From: Escherichia coli
GTDB taxonomy: Bacteria > Pseudomonadota > Gammaproteobacteria > Enterobacterales > Enterobacteriaceae
Length of the DNA: 64,000 nt
Assembly (NCBI RefSeq): GCF_044324785.1
Contig: NZ_CP172127.1
Reading direction: 5' to 3' (one strand)
Of this stretch, positions 6,361 through 27,311 are shown one piece after another. Below the pieces are notes generated by a model. That model saw only the letters and a list, made by a program, of their open reading frames with translations. It was not told where the DNA came from and did not search any database. The translations under genes and the position numbers were made by a program. How positions within the stretch are numbered: the first letter of the stretch is position 1; every line of letters starts with the position of its first letter.

Positions 6361-7266
6361 CTATATTTCCAGACACCTGTTATCACTTAACCCATTACTG
6401 GCCTGCTGCCGCAGATATTCCCGTGGCGAGCGATAACCCAGTGCACTATGCGGATGCCATTCGTTATAATGCTCGAACGCCTCTGCAAGGTTCTTTGCTG
6501 CCGTTAACCCGTCTGGTTTAGGCATGATACTGATGTAGTCACGCTTTATCGTTTTCACGAAGCTCTCTGCTATGCCGTTACTCTCCGGACTCCGCACCGC
6601 CGTGTTCTTCGGTTCAAGCCCCAACATCCGGGCAAACTGCCGTGTTTCATTAGCCCGGTAGCATGAACCATTATCCGTCAGCCACTCTACTGGAGACGCC
6701 GGAAGCTCGTTGCCGAAGCGGCGTTCCACCGCTCCCAGCATTACGTCCTGTACTGTTTCACTGTCGAAGCCGCCCGTAGTGACTGCCCAGTGCAGTGCCT
6801 CACGGTCACAGCAGTCCAGCGCGAACGTGACTCGCAGTTTTTCTCCGTTATCACAGCGGAACTCGAACCCGTCAGAGCACCATCGTTGATTGCTTTCTTT
6901 CACGGCCACTTTGCCAGTATGTGCCCGTTTCGATGGCGGTACAGCGGTTTTTCGCTCAAGCAACAGCGCATTCTGGCGCATGATCCGGTAAACACGTTTG
7001 GCATTGATCGCAGGCATACCATCAAGTTCGGCCTGTCTGCGAAGCAGCGCCCATACCCGACGATAACCATACGTGGGCAGCTCTCCGATAACATGGTGTA
7101 TACGGAGAAGCACATCCGTATCATCTGAGTGACGGCTGCGGCGACCATCTTTCCAGTCATCGGTTCGTCTGAGAATTACGTGCAACTGCGCACGCGACAC
7201 CCGGAGACAACGGCTGACTAAGCTTACTCCCCATCCCCGGGCAATAAGGGCGCGTGCGCTATCCAC
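6361..7266 (-). CDS. insD: IS2 transposase OrfB (InsD), DDE domain
   Basis: 301-aa ORF matching IS2 InsD; overlaps insC in the -1 frame, typical of IS3-family elements. Confidence 0.9.
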
Positions 7267-7589
7267 TTTTTTGCACGCCCGTATTCAACGGCTTCTTTAA
7301 GGAGTTCATTTTCCATCGTTTTTTTGCCGAGCAGGCGCTGGAGTTCTTTAATCTGCTTCATGGCAGCAGCAAGTTCAGAGGCAGGAACGACCTGCTCTCC
7401 TGCGGCCACAGCAGTAAGACTTCCCTCCTGGTATTGCTTGCGCCAGAGAAATAACTGGCTGGCTGCCACACCGTGTTGCCGGGCAACAAGGGAGACCGTC
7501 ATTCCCGGTTCAAAACTCTGCTGAACAATAGCGATCTTTTCCTGTGTAGTACGCCGTCTGCGTTTCTCCGGTCCTAAGACATCAATCAT
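7224..7589 (-). CDS. insC: IS2 transposase OrfA (InsC)
   Basis: [56 protein letters not shown]... matches IS2 InsC. Confidence 0.9.
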
Positions 7590-7681
7590 CTGCTCTCCAA
7601 TGACTAGTCTAAAAACTAGTATTAAGACTATCACTTATTTAAGTGATATTGGTTGTCTGGAGATTCAGGGGGCCAGTCTAA

Positions 7682-8499
<818 letters not shown>

Positions 8500-19992: not shown

Positions 19993-20414
19993 CCTCGCGC
20001 ATACAGCCGGGCAGTGACGTCATCGTCTGCGCGGAAATGGACGAACAGTGGGGCTATGTCGGGGCTAAATCGCGCCAGCGCTGGCTGTTTTACGCGTATG
20101 ACAGTCTCCGGAAGACGGTTGTTGCGCACGTATTCGGTGAACGCACTATGGCGACGCTGGGGCGTCTTATGAGCCTGCTGTCACCCTTTGACGTGGTGAT
20201 ATGGATGACGGATGGCTGGCCGCTGTATGAATCCCGCCTGAAGGGAAAGCTGCACGTAATCAGCAAGCGATATACGCAGCGAATTGAGCGGCATAACCTG
20301 AATCTGAGGCAGCACCTGGCACGGCTGGGACGGAAGTCGCTGTCGTTTTCAAAATCGGTGGAGCTGCATGACAAAGTCATCAGGCATTATCTGAACATAA
20401 AACACTATCAATAA
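19911..20414 (+). CDS. insB: IS1 InsB frame (expressed as InsAB' by -1 frameshifting)
   Basis: ORF carrying the IS1 InsB sequence ...[47 protein letters not shown]...; coordinates are the open frame, not a defined start. Confidence 0.8.
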
Positions 20415-20429
20415 GTTGGAGTCATTACC

Positions 20430-20578
20430 GTGTTCCCGACAGACGACTCGGTGAAAAAAGTGGTGTGGCTGGCAATCCAGTCTGCGTCCCAGAAATGGAC
20501 GATGCCGTTGAAGGACTGGCGAATGGCAATGAGCCGCTTTATTATCGAGTTCGGTGACCGCCTGGACGGTCACTTCTG
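20430..20578 (+). pseudogene. C-terminal fragment of an IS256/Mutator-family transposase, cut at the IS1 boundary
   Basis: VFPTDDSVKKVVWLAIQSASQKWTMPLKDWRMAMSRFIIEFGDRLDGHF followed by a stop; resembles IS256-family transposase C-termini as recalled; begins right at the IS1 end. Confidence 0.5.
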
Positions 20579-20848
20579 AGAAAAGGCATTTACACAGAAT
20601 CCTAAACAGGCTCATTCAGACAGCTTTTTATTTCACTATGGCTATCCCAGAACAATCAGTACAAATAATAAAAGACATATCACAGCAACACTCCACACTG
20701 ACAGCGCAAAAATAAATGCCGCCTTTGTTATCTTCATATACAAGCAACCTGTCCTGATAATCACCAGCTCATGTTTTATTCTTAACCATTCGTCACAAAT
20801 ACAACAAAAAATAACAGCAGCAGCACCGATATCACAATATAAGATACA

Positions 20849-21304
20849 TTATTCAACACCTGAATCCCCCGCCGCTTCTCTCCCCTTTATAAAACGCCCC
20901 TTCCGGAATCCAGACCGCTGCAGTGCACGACGAAGATGACCGTATACCGTCTTGTCATTCTGCCCCGTCTCTTCTGTAATCTCCGCAATACTTAAACCTC
21001 TGTAATACCGGTTCAGTAACGCTCTGCGCTCTTCCAGCGTCAACACACCTCCGGCCGCTCTCAGATTCAGCATCGACTTATTCAGAATACAGCAGGCCTC
21101 TCCGGTAAAAAGAATACGAACAATATCTGTATACTCATCATCACAGAATACAAAATAATATCTGAATGACCTGCCTGACTGCACCCTTCTTCTGTCTGAT
21201 ATGGCATCTTCTATATATCTGATTCGACTGCTTACGGTTCCAAATACCTCTCGCAGGGCTTTTTCAAAATAAATATCTCTCGTCGCCAGGATTATATCCA
21301 GCAT
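20849..21304 (-). CDS. Putative HTH transcriptional regulator (LuxR/sigma-70 region-4-like C-terminus)
   Basis: C-terminal LTLEERRALLNRYYRGLSIAEITEETGQNDKTVYGHLRRALQR resembles a GerE/region-4 HTH; lies immediately upstream of the adhesin gene on the same strand. Confidence 0.5.
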   Translation of the reverse strand: MLDIILATRDIYFEKALREVFGTVSSRIRYIEDAISDRRRVQSGRSFRYYFVFCDDEYTDIVRILFTGEACCILNKSMLNLRAAGGVLTLEERRALLNRYYRGLSIAEITEETGQNDKTVYGHLRRALQRSGFRKGRFIKGREAAGDSGVE

Positions 21305-21365
21305 CTCTGTACCTCATTATATCCCGGGGGACTCCCCCCGGGACAGATATCTAAATCCTGACCTG

Positions 21366-22631
21366 TCAGAACTCAAAATTCACACCAGCATTCCACGATG
21401 CGGATGACCCACCTGCAGCAACTGCAACTTTTCCTGCCACATTCTCTGTGAAACGGTAGCCCACGCCCACCGCAATGGCCTGCTCATCACGGTAACCACC
21501 AACGGCTGCTGTCGCGTTAAATTTTCCAACACTGTATGGCTGGAAAAGACCGGCCAGTGCCGCGCTCTGGGCTGCACTCTCCCTTAACTCCTTCCGGTTC
21601 TCTTTAATCTGCTCCTGCATATTATTCATTCTCTCTGTCGCCATCTTCTGCCAGGCTTCCGTCAAATCCAGACGATGACTGTTATTCCTTATCGCTGCTG
21701 TATTTGAGGCTATTGCTGCATCCGTCTGCGCCCTGTTCTTCACAAGCACATCGCTGAGATGTTCTGCCTGGCTTTTCGCTTCTTTACGGGCATCCCGTAC
21801 ACTTTTATCTGTATAAGCCCGGGAAACCTGAACTGTTTCATCCGCTTTTTCTTTTATTTCATCCTGAAGAGCAAGAGAAGATGCATCCGTATACGCCACC
21901 GCTGCCGATGTGCCTGCAATAATATCCCTGCTGAGTTCATCACGTACTGCTGTAACCTGACTGTCAGTATGAGCACGGGCATCTCTGTATACACCGCCTA
22001 TCTCACCGCGCAGGGCATCCCCCGACACCCGTACAGCATCTGCAATGGCGTTGTCCATCTGTCCTTTTGTGGCCGCATCACTATCCTTAACACCATCTGA
22101 AACATTTATAATCCGGCGGGTTTCCGGTGCTCCTTTGACACTCTCTCCATATCCCTCAGGCCCGGCACCAACAGATACCACGTTATTTTCTCCCGACACC
22201 TGTGAGCCATGGCCCAGAGCTACAGAACTGGTAGAATCCTGCACAGATGAAAACGCACCAATTGCCGAGCTCTGACGAGAAGAAATAAGTGACGCTTCTT
22301 TTCCTGCAACAGTCCCCCATTCAGAGTCAGCAATAAGTGCATCATGCCCCAGACTCACACTTCCCGGAGAGTTCACAACACCAGAATTATTCCCCAAAAG
22401 CACAGTCCTGTTTGAGTCTAATAAAAAAGAATCATCACCAATCAACCATACATTTCTTACTTTATCAATCGAACGGCCAGCTACTGATTCTCCAACAAGA
22501 AAGCTATTATCTTCGCCAGGTTCAATCGGTCCGATTAAAATATCCTGAGCCTGAGCCTGAGCCGAGAGCAGCAGGGCCACACTCACTGCCAGCGCGCTTT
22601 TCTTTAAAAAAGCATCACGTCTTTTAAGCAT
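21366..22631 (-). CDS. Trimeric autotransporter adhesin (YadA-like C-terminal anchor; Eib/Saa-like)
   Basis: Signal peptide [28 protein letters not shown]; repetitive head, long coiled-coil stalk; C-terminal anchor ...[35 protein letters not shown]; RBS AGGAGA before the ATG at 22631. Confidence 0.7.
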
Positions 22632-23118
22632 TCTGTTATTCTCCTGTATTATTACTTCACCAGCCAGAACGGTAGTGCGGAGCAAAAATACAGTGATAAG
22701 AATCCTCTTTTATTAATTTAATAATGCCAGGAATATTATTGTGTATAATATGCGCCCTCAATTTAAGCAGCAGAAAAGCAATGACGAGAAAATCATTAAA
22801 ATACATAAAGATAAAACATCATAACTATAATTATAATAAGCGCGCTTATTTTAGCATCTGAACATTTAAAGTACTGCTATCACAAAACAATAAAAATCCT
22901 GGGTAATATCTCTGATGATTGAATGAGAAATTCACGATGTCTGGTGAGAATTCTGTTCAAAACGAGGAATGCAGACATACATGTGGCAGGCATGGACTTC
23001 CACCGATTTAACTTTTTTCCTTCCTTGTATTTACACATCACACATTTTGCGCTACAAAAATTTCACGTGGCACGCACCACGTGATCCGTAGAAAAGCCTC
23101 TTGTTACGAATTTCGTAA

Positions 23119-23150
23119 ACCGCACGTCTGTCTGGTCGTGCGGATTTTTT
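23119..23150 (+). terminator. Orphan intrinsic-terminator-like hairpin with U-tract
   Basis: CCGCACG-tctgtctggt-CGTGCGG followed by ATTTTTTAT; no + strand CDS upstream. Confidence 0.4.
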
Positions 23151-23343
23151 ATCCGTCAACTTCACATGAAACCGCCAGATCACTGTTTCCGGATTCAGAC
23201 ATCAGGCATATTATCATCCACAATGTCGTGAACAAGATCACACTTTTGCAATTCCTTTATTGATCGAAAGCAGTTAATCACGGAAATTAATTACCGGAGT
23301 GAAAGCATTACTGCATCGTAAATATCTACCATTTTTGACTACA

Positions 23344-23373
23344 CCCTCTGACAGAATTTTCAGAGGGTTTTTT
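23344..23373 (+). terminator. Orphan intrinsic-terminator-like hairpin with U-tract
   Basis: CCCTCTGA-cagaattt-TCAGAGGG followed by TTTTTTAT. Confidence 0.45.
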
Positions 23374-23827
23374 ATCAGTTTCACCATCCAACCCTGTACG
23401 CCAGAATGGTTTCACTGTCACTCAGTTCTGCTATTGCCTTTTTCATCTCCCTTTACCTTACGTTCTGCCAGAGTCTGAGCCATTTGAACAGGAGGTTATC
23501 ATTGATATCGTGTTCCCGGGCAATACGGGCAACAGAGGCTCCTGGTTGCAAAACCAGTTTAACCATTTGAAGTTTAACTCATTTGAAAATGATCTGCGGG
23601 GTTCTGCGGATAATGTTTTTGCTCCATAACAGGCGCCCACCAGTTTGAAAAGGTGGGCACCTACGTTACCAATACTGGCTTAATGGATACATACGGCGGT
23701 CGGTTCTTACGGTAAAACGACACAACCAAACGCTTCTTATCCTGCAATGAACTGCTTTATTACCGAGTTTAGTGACCGCACAGACACTCACTTTTAAGAA
23801 AAACAGAATGGTAAACAAACTCCATGA

Positions 23828-24007
23828 ATTACAATAGCTCTCTGGCTGCCGCCACAATAGCTTGCGCGGTTAACCCGTACTCTCTCTGTAAAAAGTCCTG
23901 AGTTTCAACCTGGCCATACCGCTCTTTAACCCCCACCCGACGCATGGGCACAGGACAAGTTTCTACAAGCACTTCAGCAACTGCTGAACCTAATCCATTA
24001 TGAATAC
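23828..24007 (-). pseudogene. 3' remnant of a transketolase C-terminal-subunit gene, truncated by the IS1-like element
   Basis: Minus-strand translation ...IHNGLGSAVAEVLVETCPVPMRRVGVKERYGQVETQDFLQREYGLTAQAIVAAARELL* resembles transketolase C-terminal domains; the upstream coding sequence is replaced by the IS1-like element at 24008. Confidence 0.5.
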
Positions 24008-24770
24008 GGTAATGACTCCAATTAGTTGAATTAGGAGTATAATAGCCACTTTTAAGGTTCTTTCATGGTCACAGTTAACCTTCATTGCTCCTGTTGCCAG
24101 TCCGTTCAGGTTTACCGTCACGGGAAGAACCCAAAGGACATGATCGATTTCGCTGCCGTGACTGTCATCGAGTGCTTCAGCTCACTTACCGTTACGAGGC
24201 CCGTAAACCGGGAGTTAAAGAGCAAATCACTGAAATGGCTTTCAACGGTGCCGGAGTTCGCGATACTGCCCGTACGCTGAAAATCGGCATTAATACTGTC
24301 ATCCGGACTTTAAAAAACTCTCGCCACGAAGAATAACGTCATACCCGGTCGCTCATGCTGATATGGCACTCATCTGCGAACTTGATGAGCAATGGAGTTT
24401 TGTCGGCAGTAAAGCGCGACAGCACTGGCTCTGGTACACGTACAACACGAAAACTGGTGGCGTTCTGGCCTACACTTTTGGCCTACGGACTGATTAAACC
24501 TGTCGTGAATTGCTGGCGCTGCTTGCCCTTTTACCATCGGTATGTTGACCACTGACGAATGGGGTAGTTACACCAGAGAGTTACCGAAGGAGAAGCATCT
24601 GACTGGTAAGATTTTTACTCAGCGCATTGAGCGCAACATCTACCTCTGAGAACCCGAATCAAACGTCTGGCCCGCAGAACTATCTGTTTCACGCGCTCTG
24701 TAGAACTTCATGAAAAAGTCATCGGTGCCTTTATCGAAAAATATATGTTCTACTAATTGGAGTCACCACC
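24008..24770 (+). mobile_element. Degenerate IS1-family element (divergent from canonical IS1, disrupted reading frames)
   Basis: IS1-like termini GGTAATGACTCCAA ... TTGGAGTCACCACC; InsA-like ...RFRCRDCHRVLQLTYRYEARKPGVKEQITEMAFNGAGVRDTARTLKIGINTVIRTLKN and InsB-like fragments split across frames. Confidence 0.7.
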
Positions 24771-25321
24771 TTCGTTTGTTTAAAGAACCTGCTGGTCCTG
24801 CCATTAATATTACCTGCTGATTGCTTCACATCCGGATTCCTCGCACTGCGCGCGGGTTATTGTTTCGTTTTCGGCCACGGGGTCGCCAGGGCTCTGTTTG
24901 CAGGCCATGATGGCCTGACCTGTACTGTTTCTCAGGCACTGAGATGTCCGTTTACGCCATTTGTTCCCGGATATCCTTAACCTCTGACGTTTGTTCCCTG
25001 CCCCTCTGTCTGATAACGAATACGCTCACAACGCACAGTACTGAACAATACCGACAACAACATGTCTTACATGAAATTCGCTGTAACATCCACCGGAAAA
25101 CATTTTCAGATATCGGATGAGGTACTACTTCCATTGACAGCGCGAGGTAACAAAATTGATGGTAACTCTGACCATTAACCGTAAACCGCAGGGTATTTTC
25201 AGTAAATCACCGGCAACGCCGCTGCAGAATAAAACGGACACAGCATACAAAATGAAGGCCGGTGACCAGATACCACAGTTGAACGATAAACAGAAACCTG
25301 CTGATAAAACACCGTGGCGAC

Positions 25322-25667
25322 ATGACAAAACGCCAGAGCAAAAACCGTAAGCGCATTATTCGTCTTGTGGAACTCTGGCCTGAGTCATTCAACCGGGAAA
25401 AAAACAAAACCACTTAAAGTGGGGATACCTGACGACCTGATACAGGATATCGCCATCCGAGAACTGGCGTTTGGCGCTGGTACATTACATGCAGCAGTGG
25501 CGTCTTATGTGCAGTCTCCGCGCTATTACCGTGCGTTAATAGCAGGTGGCGCCCGTTACAACCTGAACGGTCAGCCGTGCGGGGAAGTGACACCACAGGA
25601 ACAGAAAGAGGCAGAGACCCGTTTAATGATGCTGAATGACCGACGAAAAGACAGAAAACCTCGTTGA
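25322..25667 (+). pseudogene. FinO/ProQ-family RNA-chaperone-like gene interrupted by a frameshift in an A7 tract
   Basis: Frame 1 MTKRQSKNRKRIIRLVELWPESFNREKNKTT* stops at 25415-25417; the +1 frame continues ...KPLKVGIPDDLIQDIAIRELAFGAGTLHAAVASYVQSPRYYRALIAGGARYNLNGQPCGEVTPQE (FinO-like); junction at GGGAAAAAAACAAAACC (25395-25411). Confidence 0.55.
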
Positions 25668-25684
25668 CTGCACAACAGCGCTGT

Positions 25685-26437
25685 TCACTGAGCTGTAATC
25701 AATGTACAGCGCTGTACCGGGCGATGGGTAATACCGGTCACAACCGGTAACCCCAGAGACAATGCAACTGTTTTTAACGCAATATACTGGCCGGATGTAT
25801 CACCCCGGGCAGCCTGAAAACACCTTTCCACCCGGCATTGTCCGTCAGCACTTATCACCCGCCATGTCTGTTGCAATAAATCCACCCGTTGCGAACATTC
25901 TTCATCAACCGTGGCACTGACCCGTGGATGGCAAATGCTCGTCTGGCTGAGCAGCAACAGGCATCGCATTGTTGCTCCTCCATGTTGTTCCCGCAACCAG
26001 CGTAATACCACCGGTGGTGCTGGACTGGCCGTGTGATTACGTTCAGTAATACGCTCGTGCACCTGTCGGTAAAAGGAAGTACAGAATGCATGAATCTGTT
26101 GTCCGTTGATGTTTCCTTCTGCCGAATGGAGTGTGAAGTGGACGGCCAGCAGACGCGGCCAGTGATCCACCGCCTGCTGAATAAAACGCCGGATTTCCAC
26201 CGGCTCTGAAAGTACGGTTTCGGTTATTTGCACGATTTGATCCCCTTGAATGTTGCTGAACCGGTGTCGGTACGCAGGAAAGCACGCCGAGACCGGTACG
26301 ATGCCTGTTACAGCGAAGAACGAGGAATGACAGACGGGGGCAGCAGGTCGCCAGCACCAGGGACAGGGCTGATTTCCACAATACCAACGCTGGTATTTTG
26401 CACATTGCCAGCGTACCGGCATTACAACACGTTTCAT
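25685..26437 (-). CDS. Hypothetical protein, start overlapping the alpA stop
   Basis: ORF with ATGA overlap to alpA; cysteine/tryptophan-rich N-terminus (MKRVVMPVRWQCAKYQRWYCGNQPCPWCW); no family recognised. Confidence 0.4.
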   Translation of the reverse strand: MKRVVMPVRWQCAKYQRWYCGNQPCPWCWRPAAPVCHSSFFAVTGIVPVSACFPAYRHRFSNIQGDQIVQITETVLSEPVEIRRFIQQAVDHWPRLLAVHFTLHSAEGNINGQQIHAFCTSFYRQVHERITERNHTASPAPPVVLRWLREQHGGATMRCLLLLSQTSICHPRVSATVDEECSQRVDLLQQTWRVISADGQCRVERCFQAARGDTSGQYIALKTVALSLGLPVVTGITHRPVQRCTLITAQ

Positions 26438-26670
26438 GCGGCGACTCCCCGTGATGCTTCGATGCGCTGCTGCATCCACTGCTCCACTTCGCTTCTGTAC
26501 CAGCGGCTGCTGCGGCCCAGTTTGATGGGTTTAGGGAAATGGCCTTCACTGATCAGCTTGTAAAACCATTTGTCGGTCATACCAGTGAAGCTGGTGATGT
26601 AGTTCATGTCGATCAGGGGATCGTCGGCACGCAGCAATACGCTGTCGTGACCTGTCATTGAGGTCAACAT
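26434..26670 (-). CDS. alpA: AlpA-family phage/island transcriptional regulator
   Basis: 78 aa; ...LIDMNYITSFTGMTDKWFYKLISEGHFPKPIKLGRSSRWYRSEVEQWM matches the AlpA HTH family. Confidence 0.8.
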   Translation of the reverse strand: MLTSMTGHDSVLLRADDPLIDMNYITSFTGMTDKWFYKLISEGHFPKPIKLGRSSRWYRSEVEQWMQQRIEASRGVAA

Positions 26671-26738
26671 GGTCAGAATGTCCTCTGTGAGATTTATGAA
26701 TGTTGGGCAAATGCGGGTGAATCTGCTGAGCTGAGCTT

Positions 26739-27311
26739 TCAGAGCTGGCCTGCTACGGGATACCAGGGATTACCGGCGAGGTAACGGGCTTCCGGATCGC
26801 GCACACCACGACGATCGCGGGCGAAATCACTGAACGCCCATATCAGCTCTTTGAGTCTCTCTTCGCAGTCCGGTGAACGGGGATCCAGCAGCACATCCCG
26901 GGTAATCTGCTTCTGGTACGGTGCCGCTTCACCCGGTGACGCGAAGCCCAGTACGTTGCTCCAGGCATCCAGAATCAGCCGATCCAGTTCAGGGCCGTCG
27001 AAATATTCCTCCCTGACGCACAGCACCACGTGGTATTCCGGTTTTTCAGGATGACGAGTCAGGAGCCAGCAGAGATCACGTCCGGGGGTTGCATTCATCA
27101 GCGCACTGACGGTTTCGATAAAGGCCATACCGAACCAGGTTTTTCTGTCGCTGAAGATGTTGCCATGTTCCCCCGGCAGACGAAGCAGGATCCGCCGTAT
27201 TCGGGAGCAGGGCTGCTCACGCAGCGCACGCTCAAGGACACCGATAACTTTGCTCTGATAAGATGGCCAGAAGGGCGCCATGCTATAGTCGAAATAAGGG
27301 ATAGCATTCAT
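26739..27311 (-). CDS. YagK/YfjJ-family protein (inovirus Gp2-type), apparently 5'-truncated relative to its paralogue
   Basis: Similar to the 27668..28399 paralogue (YHVVLCVREEYF vs YHVILLLNKDTW); the paralogue's conserved 5' leader motif lies about 160 bp upstream of this gene. Confidence 0.55.
   Translation of the reverse strand: MNAIPYFDYSMAPFWPSYQSKVIGVLERALREQPCSRIRRILLRLPGEHGNIFSDRKTWFGMAFIETVSALMNATPGRDLCWLLTRHPEKPEYHVVLCVREEYFDGPELDRLILDAWSNVLGFASPGEAAPYQKQITRDVLLDPRSPDCEERLKELIWAFSDFARDRRGVRDPEARYLAGNPWYPVAGQL

Follow-up and report, generated by a model that had tools for sequence, protein, structure and literature searches.

Why should two hairpins with the build of intrinsic terminators lie on a strand on which no gene precedes them? 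In the window, i.e. the whole stretch of 64,000 nucleotides of an Escherichia coli genome that was analysed (contig NZ_CP172127.1), these hairpins, here called T1 (23120-23150) and T2 (23343-23374), occur on the + strand of a spacer of about 830 nt. RefSeq leaves 22632-23380 unannotated, and the flanking genes are all located on the - strand. A previous sequence-only reading of this DNA had described an ORF-free stretch with the nearest genes on the minus strand, and had offered one or two short transcripts (a small RNA or a leader peptide) or the relics of a deleted operon as explanations. Its description of the stretch is correct: only ORFs of up to 60 aa are present, and a Pfam and PHROGs search with every spacer ORF of at least 30 aa on both strands gave no match.

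T1 possesses a stem of seven base pairs, six of them GC pairs, in which CCGCACG (23120-23126) pairs with CGTGCGG (23137-23143) across a 10-nt loop; the tail consists of an A and six T residues (23144-23150). In a 46-nt context, the folding energy is -14.3 kcal/mol (z = -3.7), and none of 200 shuffled sequences was as stable. T2 has a stem of nine base pairs, five of them GC pairs, formed by ACCCTCTGA (23343-23351) and TCAGAGGGT (23360-23368), which enclose a loop of 8 nt, and its tail is a stretch of six to seven T residues up to 23373 (-14.7 kcal/mol, z = -4.4; again, no shuffled sequence out of 200 was as stable). Both hairpins are thus of the kind found in intrinsic terminators, which have GC-rich stems of approximately 5-12 bp and short loops. 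The adjoining U-run exists on the + strand only, AUUUUUU after T1 and UUUUUU after T2. The - strand versions fold just as well (-11.3 and -17.2 kcal/mol), but their tails are UUUACGAAAU and UGUAGUCAAA. Because an A-run precedes each hairpin on this strand and no U-run follows, the terminator polarity of T1 and T2 is that of the + strand. The two + strand hairpins with T-runs that had been noticed from the letters were hence borne out by their stems, fold energies, shuffled controls and polarity. T1 and T2 are strong transcription-stop signals, termination itself being predicted. A literature search with the exact sequences of the region gave no match.

Upstream of T1, an inverted repeat, T3 (23063-23084), was detected with the sequence TCACGTGG-CACGCA-CCACGTGA, followed on the - strand by AATTTTTGTA (-13.4 kcal/mol). 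It had previously been taken for a perfect palindrome at 23065-23084. In fact, it consists of inverted arms of 7-8 bp around the non-symmetric 6-nt spacer CACGCA, and the 20-mer CACGTGGCACGCACCACGTG sits one base off that position, at 23064-23083. Read on the - strand, T3 is a third terminator-like site, which faces in the same direction as the genes, while on the + strand it is a 5' hairpin without a U-run. The frequency of such sites was determined by a scan of both strands with criteria set beforehand (hairpin of at most 30 nt, dG of -12 or lower, at least five T in the next seven nucleotides). The window contains 13 strong compact terminator-like sites, compared to 0-6 (mean 2.6) in eight dinucleotide shuffles of the same DNA. 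Three of the 13, namely T1, T2 and T3, fall within 312 nt (23063-23374) that make up 0.5% of the window. The clustering of the three sites is far above chance.

The genes adjacent to the spacer reveal the type of element to which it belongs. An AT-rich region (22632-22900), in which the - strand promoters TTCAGA-18-TATTAT and TTGAGG-17-TAATAT are predicted by consensus matches only, precedes a gene for a 421-aa Eib-like trimeric autotransporter of the YadA family (21366-22631, - strand; Pfam YadA_anchor, E = 1.8e-16). The adhesin shares 36% identity with EibD (E = 6e-49), the membrane anchors of the two being almost the same, and its ortholog in NRZ14408 is annotated as 'immunoglobulin-binding protein'. 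Next to it lies a gene for a 151-aa helix-turn-helix protein resembling sigma-70 region 4 (20849-21304, - strand; Pfam Sigma70_r4_2, E = 1.7e-7). This protein shows 22% identity (E = 2e-4) to ORF-156D, and the gene corresponds to ORF-156 of Eib prophages by position and, weakly, by sequence. On the other side, the spacer is bordered by the 3' remnant of a DUF4376/ORF-191 tail-fibre-assembly-like gene (23381-23459, - strand), of which the last 25 codons and the stop are left (translation ending in REMKKAIAELSDSETILAYRVGW before the stop codon). The stop codon TGA appears as tca at 23381-23383 on the + strand, and T2 starts 13 nt past it in the opposite orientation. The sequence-only reading had not recorded how close T2 lies to the end of this truncated - strand gene. 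The DUF4376 gene is cut by an ISEc23-like fragment of the IS66 family (23460-23713, - strand). According to an alignment with intact ISEc23, the fragment comprises the terminal repeat and the first (5') part of tnpA, nothing more; RefSeq annotates a frameshifted partial transposase at this site.

Judging by the sequence, a lambdoid prophage inside an E. coli genomic island has decayed here, and the locus represents its right end. The locus shows the composition of an Eib-type prophage moron, a YadA-family Eib homolog after tail fibre and ORF-191, followed by an ORF-156-like gene. The name moron for extra genes of lambdoid phages stems from Juhala et al. (2000), as cited in PMC4104026. The phage in the window is dead, and its DUF4376 gene is cut by the IS fragment, which leaves the terminators behind without any co-oriented gene. 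The suggested relics of a deleted operon are therefore relics of a prophage, but the gene that was destroyed is the - strand DUF4376/ORF-191 gene, cut by an element of the IS66 family. A paper on the tkt1 island (PMC3349570), considered as an account of the locus, concerns another locus.

Less decayed copies of the locus are available. The 1,061 nt at 22640-23700 are 100% identical to strain 135, and at least 80% of them are present in 366 of 5,426 complete genomes. A pattern scan of metagenomes yielded 28 true homologs with 90-100% identity. Three of these (L014, L037 and L049) have no IS fragment and depart from the window just right of 23455-23459, where L014 and L037 continue into a - strand ORF of 191 aa and then into a collagen-like tail-fibre gene. 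The ORF encodes a DUF4376 protein (Pfam PF14301, E = 2e-20) and was found at full length in L014, L037, L056 and L057. Altogether, 22 complete E. coli genomes as well as metagenome contigs possess the intact arrangement, which lies on one strand throughout and is annotated in the order gpJ, Lom, prophage tail fibre, DUF4376, spacer, "immunoglobulin-binding protein"/YadA-like and sigma-like helix-turn-helix. Had the hairpins closed a + strand gene that was deleted from this genome, as the sequence-only reading had considered, homologous loci should still carry it. In the intact relatives L056, L057, L014 and L037, no + strand gene has its end at T1 or at T2. The absence of an upstream + strand gene, noted before for the window, thus extends to the intact prophage copies, and no co-oriented unit ends at T1 or T2 in either. 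Only in phage 1720a-02 does a co-oriented unit (int) exist at the analogous position. The observed occurrences of the spacer region itself are limited to E. coli and metagenome contigs (90-100% identity); no homolog outside E. coli was found. In 100,044 species-representative genomes, no relatives of the YadA-like protein were detected, and the T1 pattern gave six chance matches in unrelated rumen and gut MAGs. A search of the phage collection with the spacer DNA produced no match, and among plasmids the spacer is present on pNDM5_LS003 only, the remaining matches being due to the IS fragment.

More distant relatives were identified by the protein instead of the spacer. A tblastn search of phages with the DUF4376 protein led to ORF-191 of P-EibA, P-EibC, P-EibD and P-EibE (E. 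coli ECOR-9) and to homologs in the PhiR5/PhiR12 phages, GER2, phiSTEC1589-Stx1c and 1720a-02, with an overall amino-acid identity of 56-63%. The records of these Eib-type phages contain the same module: tail fibre, ORF-191, a spacer of 360-800 nt, eib, orf-156 and orf-60. The spacer of the window cannot be aligned with those of the related phages; a short-word alignment with the P-Eib and PhiR spacers returned only chance words of 9-13 nt. The publications on EibG contain nothing on the spacer except that 168 bp upstream suffice for expression. The terminator scan was extended to P-EibA, P-EibD, PhiR5_2, PhiR12_5, GER2, phiSTEC1589-Stx1c and 1720a-02 (P-EibC, which has the same layout, stood outside the scan). 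Each of the scanned phages possesses a backward-facing intrinsic terminator approximately 6-15 nt past the ORF-191 stop codon. It reads AGGGGC...GCCCCT followed by C and seven T in P-EibA, PhiR5_2 and PhiR12_5, GGGAAA...TTTCCC followed by CCATATTTTT in P-EibD, ATGGGGGA...TCCCCCAT followed by C and five T in 1720a-02 and phiSTEC1589, and GGGGGTGA...TCACCCCC followed by G and seven T in GER2. Including T2, five unrelated terminator sequences hence occupy this position with this polarity. Tandem backward terminators, like T1 and T2, are present in P-EibA (two), PhiR5_2 (three) and phiSTEC1589 (two). In 1720a-02, a backward-oriented integrase gene and a small ORF converge on the terminator behind ORF-191, and it is therefore these that the terminator closes there. 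After the DUF4376 genes of Rac-SA53 and Vibrio phage H188 (approximately 30-36% identity), no backward terminator exists. Thus, the feature does not arise from the scan itself but is a specific property of this lambdoid clade.

With moderate confidence, T1 and T2 are interpreted as orientation-specific terminators at the boundary of the tail module and the eib moron, which would stop transcription converging on the late operon. They are part of the spacer that follows the last tail gene (DUF4376/ORF-191) and precedes the eib adhesin moron. Facing against the late/tail operon, they would halt polymerases that approach the tail module from the other side. The early-left pL operon of lambda traverses int together with the ea genes of the b region and, at its end, meets tfa head-on. 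In the phage, the transcription to be halted may likewise be that of an early-left or integrase-side unit, cf. 1720a-02. In the lysogen, it may be divergent or spurious transcription arising in the AT-rich control region of eib. T3, on the gene strand, could stop read-through from the tail operon ahead of the eib promoter, and the three sites together would insulate two transcription units. Tandem copies might serve to stop an antiterminated polymerase. It speaks against this boundary function that eib and orf-156 sit between T1/T2 and any early-left genes, and that in lambda itself the hairpin behind tfa has no U-run. A backward dinI gene is present in PhiR12_5 and L056, but it carries its own hairpin or terminator, by which T1 and T2 as closers of a dinI unit are ruled out. 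The occurrence of five unrelated backward terminators, often in tandem, directly after the last tail gene suggests that protection of the tail operon against converging transcription has been selected for. By the boundary interpretation, the orphan-looking pair of terminators would be explained as a prophage module boundary, which is mainly a matter of annotation hygiene. The locus itself is recognised as the decayed end of a prophage coding for an Eib (immunoglobulin-binding) adhesin, with a remnant of 25 codons of a gene. The finding is largely ordinary, a previously unannotated instance of a well-known type of feature.

Sequence variation among the alleles bears on this interpretation and on its alternatives. 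T1 is unchanged in all 28 metagenome homologs and in four further aligned sequences, and the 131 nt around it show at least 97.7% identity at the best match in each of 370 genomes. T3 is unchanged in all homologs as well. Due to the invariance of T1 and T3, there is no covariation signal. For T2, five sequence variants were found, all with a stem of 8-10 bp (-13.4 to -18 kcal/mol) and six or seven U residues; the sole switching pair, at the base of the stem, alternates between A-U and C-G, and some of the variation concerns homopolymer length, which may be sequencing noise. Directly 5' of T2 on the + strand lies a hypervariable patch (23311-23342), which in a second allele contains a 26-nt insertion and approximately 30% substitutions, while its flanks are 99-100% identical. 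The two alleles occur in 172 and 197 complete genomes. The stem and the U-run of T2 are retained although the adjoining 30 nt differ by approximately 30% between the alleles. Furthermore, a segment of 81 nt (22993-23073), bounded by CACGTGGCA direct repeats, is present in some alleles and missing from others, among them L052 and the prophage copy L056. The spacer is also a frequent target of IS elements.

The alternative that survives best, although it is considered unlikely, is that T1, T2 or both form the 3' ends of one or two prophage sRNAs divergent from eib. Two candidates were envisaged, an RNA of approximately 87 nt (23065-23150) with three hairpins and a second one of 60-150 nt, with T2 as its 3' end and a 5' part that would differ between alleles while the terminator is conserved. 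The layout of T1 and T2, a U-rich stretch, a hairpin and six U residues, is typical of the 3' ends of Hfq-binding sRNAs, and the DNA at 23060-23155 folds into three hairpins (-31.7 kcal/mol, z = -4.0). The hypervariable patch directly 5' of the conserved T2 recalls the anti-sRNAs of EHEC prophages, which have variable 5' ends and conserved 3' regions (PMC4104026); convergent sRNAs are documented at moron sites in these prophages (PMC4104026). In spacers of the P-EibA type, a backward promoter-like sequence (TAGTCA-17-AATAAT) is located upstream of the backward terminators. On the other hand, promoter prediction upstream of the hairpins, which the sequence-only reading had named as a check, revealed + strand sites at chance density only. 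In the position-weight scan, chance density corresponds to 81 sites scoring at least 9 per 64 kb, and the best + strand sites were TTTCCG-17-TATTAT (start at approximately 23221) with a score of 9.8 and TTTACA-17-TACAAA (23030-23058, start at approximately 23065) with 8.5. The latter, the only promoter-like site upstream of T1, has a -10 element without the conserved T at the last position, is contained in the 81-nt segment and is lost with it in natural alleles. Rfam 15, including the models of AsxR, AgvB, Esr41 and STnc100, gave no match at E <= 1 in 20000-27000 or in the related spacers L058, L059 and L062. Complementarity of the candidates to the eib 5' region was no better than that of shuffled sequences. 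Conservation of the sRNA type, with covariation beyond close relatives, was not observed, as the copies come from E. coli and metagenomes only and T1 is invariant. Pas sRNAs of EPEC are reported to match phage genomes (bioRxiv 10.64898/2026.05.13.724894); an RNA from the spacer, which has no match in the phage collection, would thus not be a Pas sRNA. There is a small chance that the backward terminators of all Eib-type prophages mark an unrecognised class of prophage sRNAs divergent from eib. If so, the allele-specific stretch 5' of T2 would be the variable targeting region of the sRNA, these RNAs might link the prophage with adhesin expression or with host genes, and discrete transcripts would enlarge the set of prophage sRNAs known to occur alongside virulence morons.

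It is rather improbable that T1 and T2 are inert debris, i.e. the terminators of lost backward genes from the b region or integrase side of an ancestral phage, which mosaic recombination or insertion of the moron removed or displaced and which left the terminators without function. Phage 1720a-02 with its backward genes ending at such a terminator would represent the ancestral type of layout, and the spacer is indeed a mosaic with the hypervariable patch, the 26-nt and the 81-nt indel, and is often hit by IS elements. However, the five unrelated terminators of the same position and polarity occur in phages that all have a late-oriented eib downstream, and it is unlikely that unselected debris would persist in the same place in every lineage. 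All variants of T2, moreover, retain pairing and the U-run, and the missing Pfam and PHROGs matches of the spacer ORFs mean that there is no trace of a + strand pseudogene.

Still less is to be said for hairpins that act on the - strand transcript or on the DNA, either as stem-loops stabilising the 3' end of the late mRNA or as an operator for a regulator of eib, where the CACGTG-containing repeat would be a putative site for the ORF-156-like helix-turn-helix protein or IbrAB; we regard this as very doubtful. All neighbouring genes are on the - strand, T2 follows immediately after a - strand stop codon and both hairpins fold equally well on that strand. An operator would be consistent with the dyad symmetry of the arms (8 bp each) and with the additional CACGTGGCA half-site that some alleles have 81 nt upstream. 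Left unexplained are the six to seven A residues that precede the hairpin on the gene strand and are retained in five unrelated sequences.

The leader peptide proposed earlier is rejected, since a co-oriented gene is lacking downstream and none of the small ORFs survives the SNPs and indels of the alleles: the ORFs between T1 and T2 are thrown out of frame by a 1-nt indel at 23171/72, and the allelic changes in a + strand ORF of 40 aa are mostly non-synonymous. A type I toxin or small hydrophobic peptide encoded by a - strand ORF of 30 aa (23149-23241) was discarded, the ORF being frameshifted in most alleles with non-synonymous changes, and a sigma-54 promoter at GTGGCACG was dropped because the -12 element is absent.

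Among the known systems, the Eib modules of ECOR-9 (P-EibA, P-EibC, P-EibD and P-EibE; GenBank AF151091, AF151674-AF151676) are similar to the window in gene order, in their homologous proteins (56-60% identity for ORF-191, 36% for Eib and 22% for ORF-156) and in the backward-facing terminators after ORF-191. The depositors of these records annotated only stem-loops on the gene strand upstream of eib and no backward terminators. Unlike the Eib prophages, the copy in the window is a decayed, IS-truncated island remnant without orf-60 or eaa. The AsxR, AgvB and EcOnc RNAs (Tree et al. 2014, PMC4104026) and the Pas RNAs are short non-coding units with Rho-independent terminators, which are located between a moron and a conserved phage gene, are in part antisense to their flanks and have variable 5' and conserved 3' regions. 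Their sites are found after PR' or beside capsid and tail structural genes, unlike the tail-eib junction described here, and the spacer shows no sequence similarity to them, the Rfam models of AsxR and AgvB included. In lambda (NC_001416), only a hairpin without a U-run is present between tfa and the converging ea47. Like the window, this junction has a backward unit meeting the last tail-fibre gene head-on, with a hairpin in a short gap, but lambda retains the backward gene ea47 and its hairpin lacks a U-run on either side, whereas the window has no backward gene and terminators that are canonical and tandem. By definition, morons possess their own promoter and terminator. The cassette of eib and the ORF-156-like gene resembles them in its position after tail genes, its own AT-rich promoter region (predicted) and the terminators at its edges. 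However, a moron's own terminator is co-oriented and lies downstream, whereas T1 and T2 are located upstream of the eib moron and face away from it.

The spacer between the DUF4376 (ORF-191) remnant and the Eib-like adhesin gene has repeatedly been hit by IS elements, as judged from the window (22810-23460), L052, L056 and strain OkiPb01692. The window carries an ISEc23-like fragment at 23460, L056 (the intact prophage copy carried by strain 135) contains a complete IS66-family element with a 9-bp duplication at 22843-22851, an IS1 lies near 22810 in the metagenome contig L052 and an insertion of ~1.26 kb is located near 23246 in OkiPb01692. An 81-nt segment (22993-23073), flanked by CACGTGGCA direct repeats, shows a presence/absence polymorphism which occurs in L052 and L056. 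As to the origin of the spacer, two near-identical terminators composed of GGGGAG-N6-8-CTCCCC and T6 were detected in the corresponding spacer of the related phage PhiR5_2 (L062 4017-4038 and 4186-4207), while a third one directly follows the backward-oriented dinI gene of phage PhiR12_5 (L061 6503-6522). The occurrence of this terminator both in a spacer and at the end of dinI hints that duplicated ends of genes facing against the tail genes may have given rise to the spacer units.

To the right of the ISEc23-like fragment, a remnant of a transketolase gene (23829-24014, minus strand) was identified. Strain 20Ec-P-124 (L003 7819-11797) harbors the complete PTS-ascorbate-type/split-transketolase operon. 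Both the window and SMS-3-5 have lost this operon by a deletion beside an IS1. Terminator-type hairpins of small RNAs are bound by FinO-domain proteins. A ProQ/FinO-family gene lies ~2 kb from the hairpins T1 (23120-23150) and T2 (23343-23374), at ~25159-25667 on the plus strand (mapped from L001 8520-9028); it is a frameshifted pseudogene, and no link between it and T1 or T2 was found.

On the other side of the spacer, the adhesin gene (21366-22631, minus strand) encodes 421 aa. Comparison with L001, L002, L003 and L056 revealed that the length of the adhesin differs greatly (from 369 aa in SMS-3-5 and 395 aa in L056 through 452 aa in 20Ec-P-124 to 581 aa in strain 135), although the loci are otherwise near-identical, which suggests that the stalk repeats expand and contract. 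Downstream of the adhesin gene, a helix-turn-helix gene (20849-21304, minus strand) was detected, whose product contains a sigma-70 region-4-like domain and shows weak homology to ORF-156 of the Eib prophages. To our knowledge, ORF-156 has not been studied. Due to this domain and the weak homology, eib modules may share a dedicated DNA-binding partner as a conserved component.

The spacer together with the eib module is present in 370 of the 5,426 complete E. coli genomes, always on the chromosome, and many of the isolates listed among the carriers originated from poultry. Only a single plasmid bearing the spacer was found, pNDM5_LS003 (L004, NZ_OP290546.1; IncI-gamma/K1 type). Its locus (6462-8090) is 91.8% identical to the window, adjoins floR and harbors at the adhesin position only a 585-bp gene annotated as 'Tat pathway signal sequence protein'. 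Apparently, this resistance plasmid captured a chromosomal prophage remnant. Within the complete genomes, the module reaches up to seven to nine copies per genome, resembling the situation in E. coli ECOR-9, where four Eib prophages reside in one strain.
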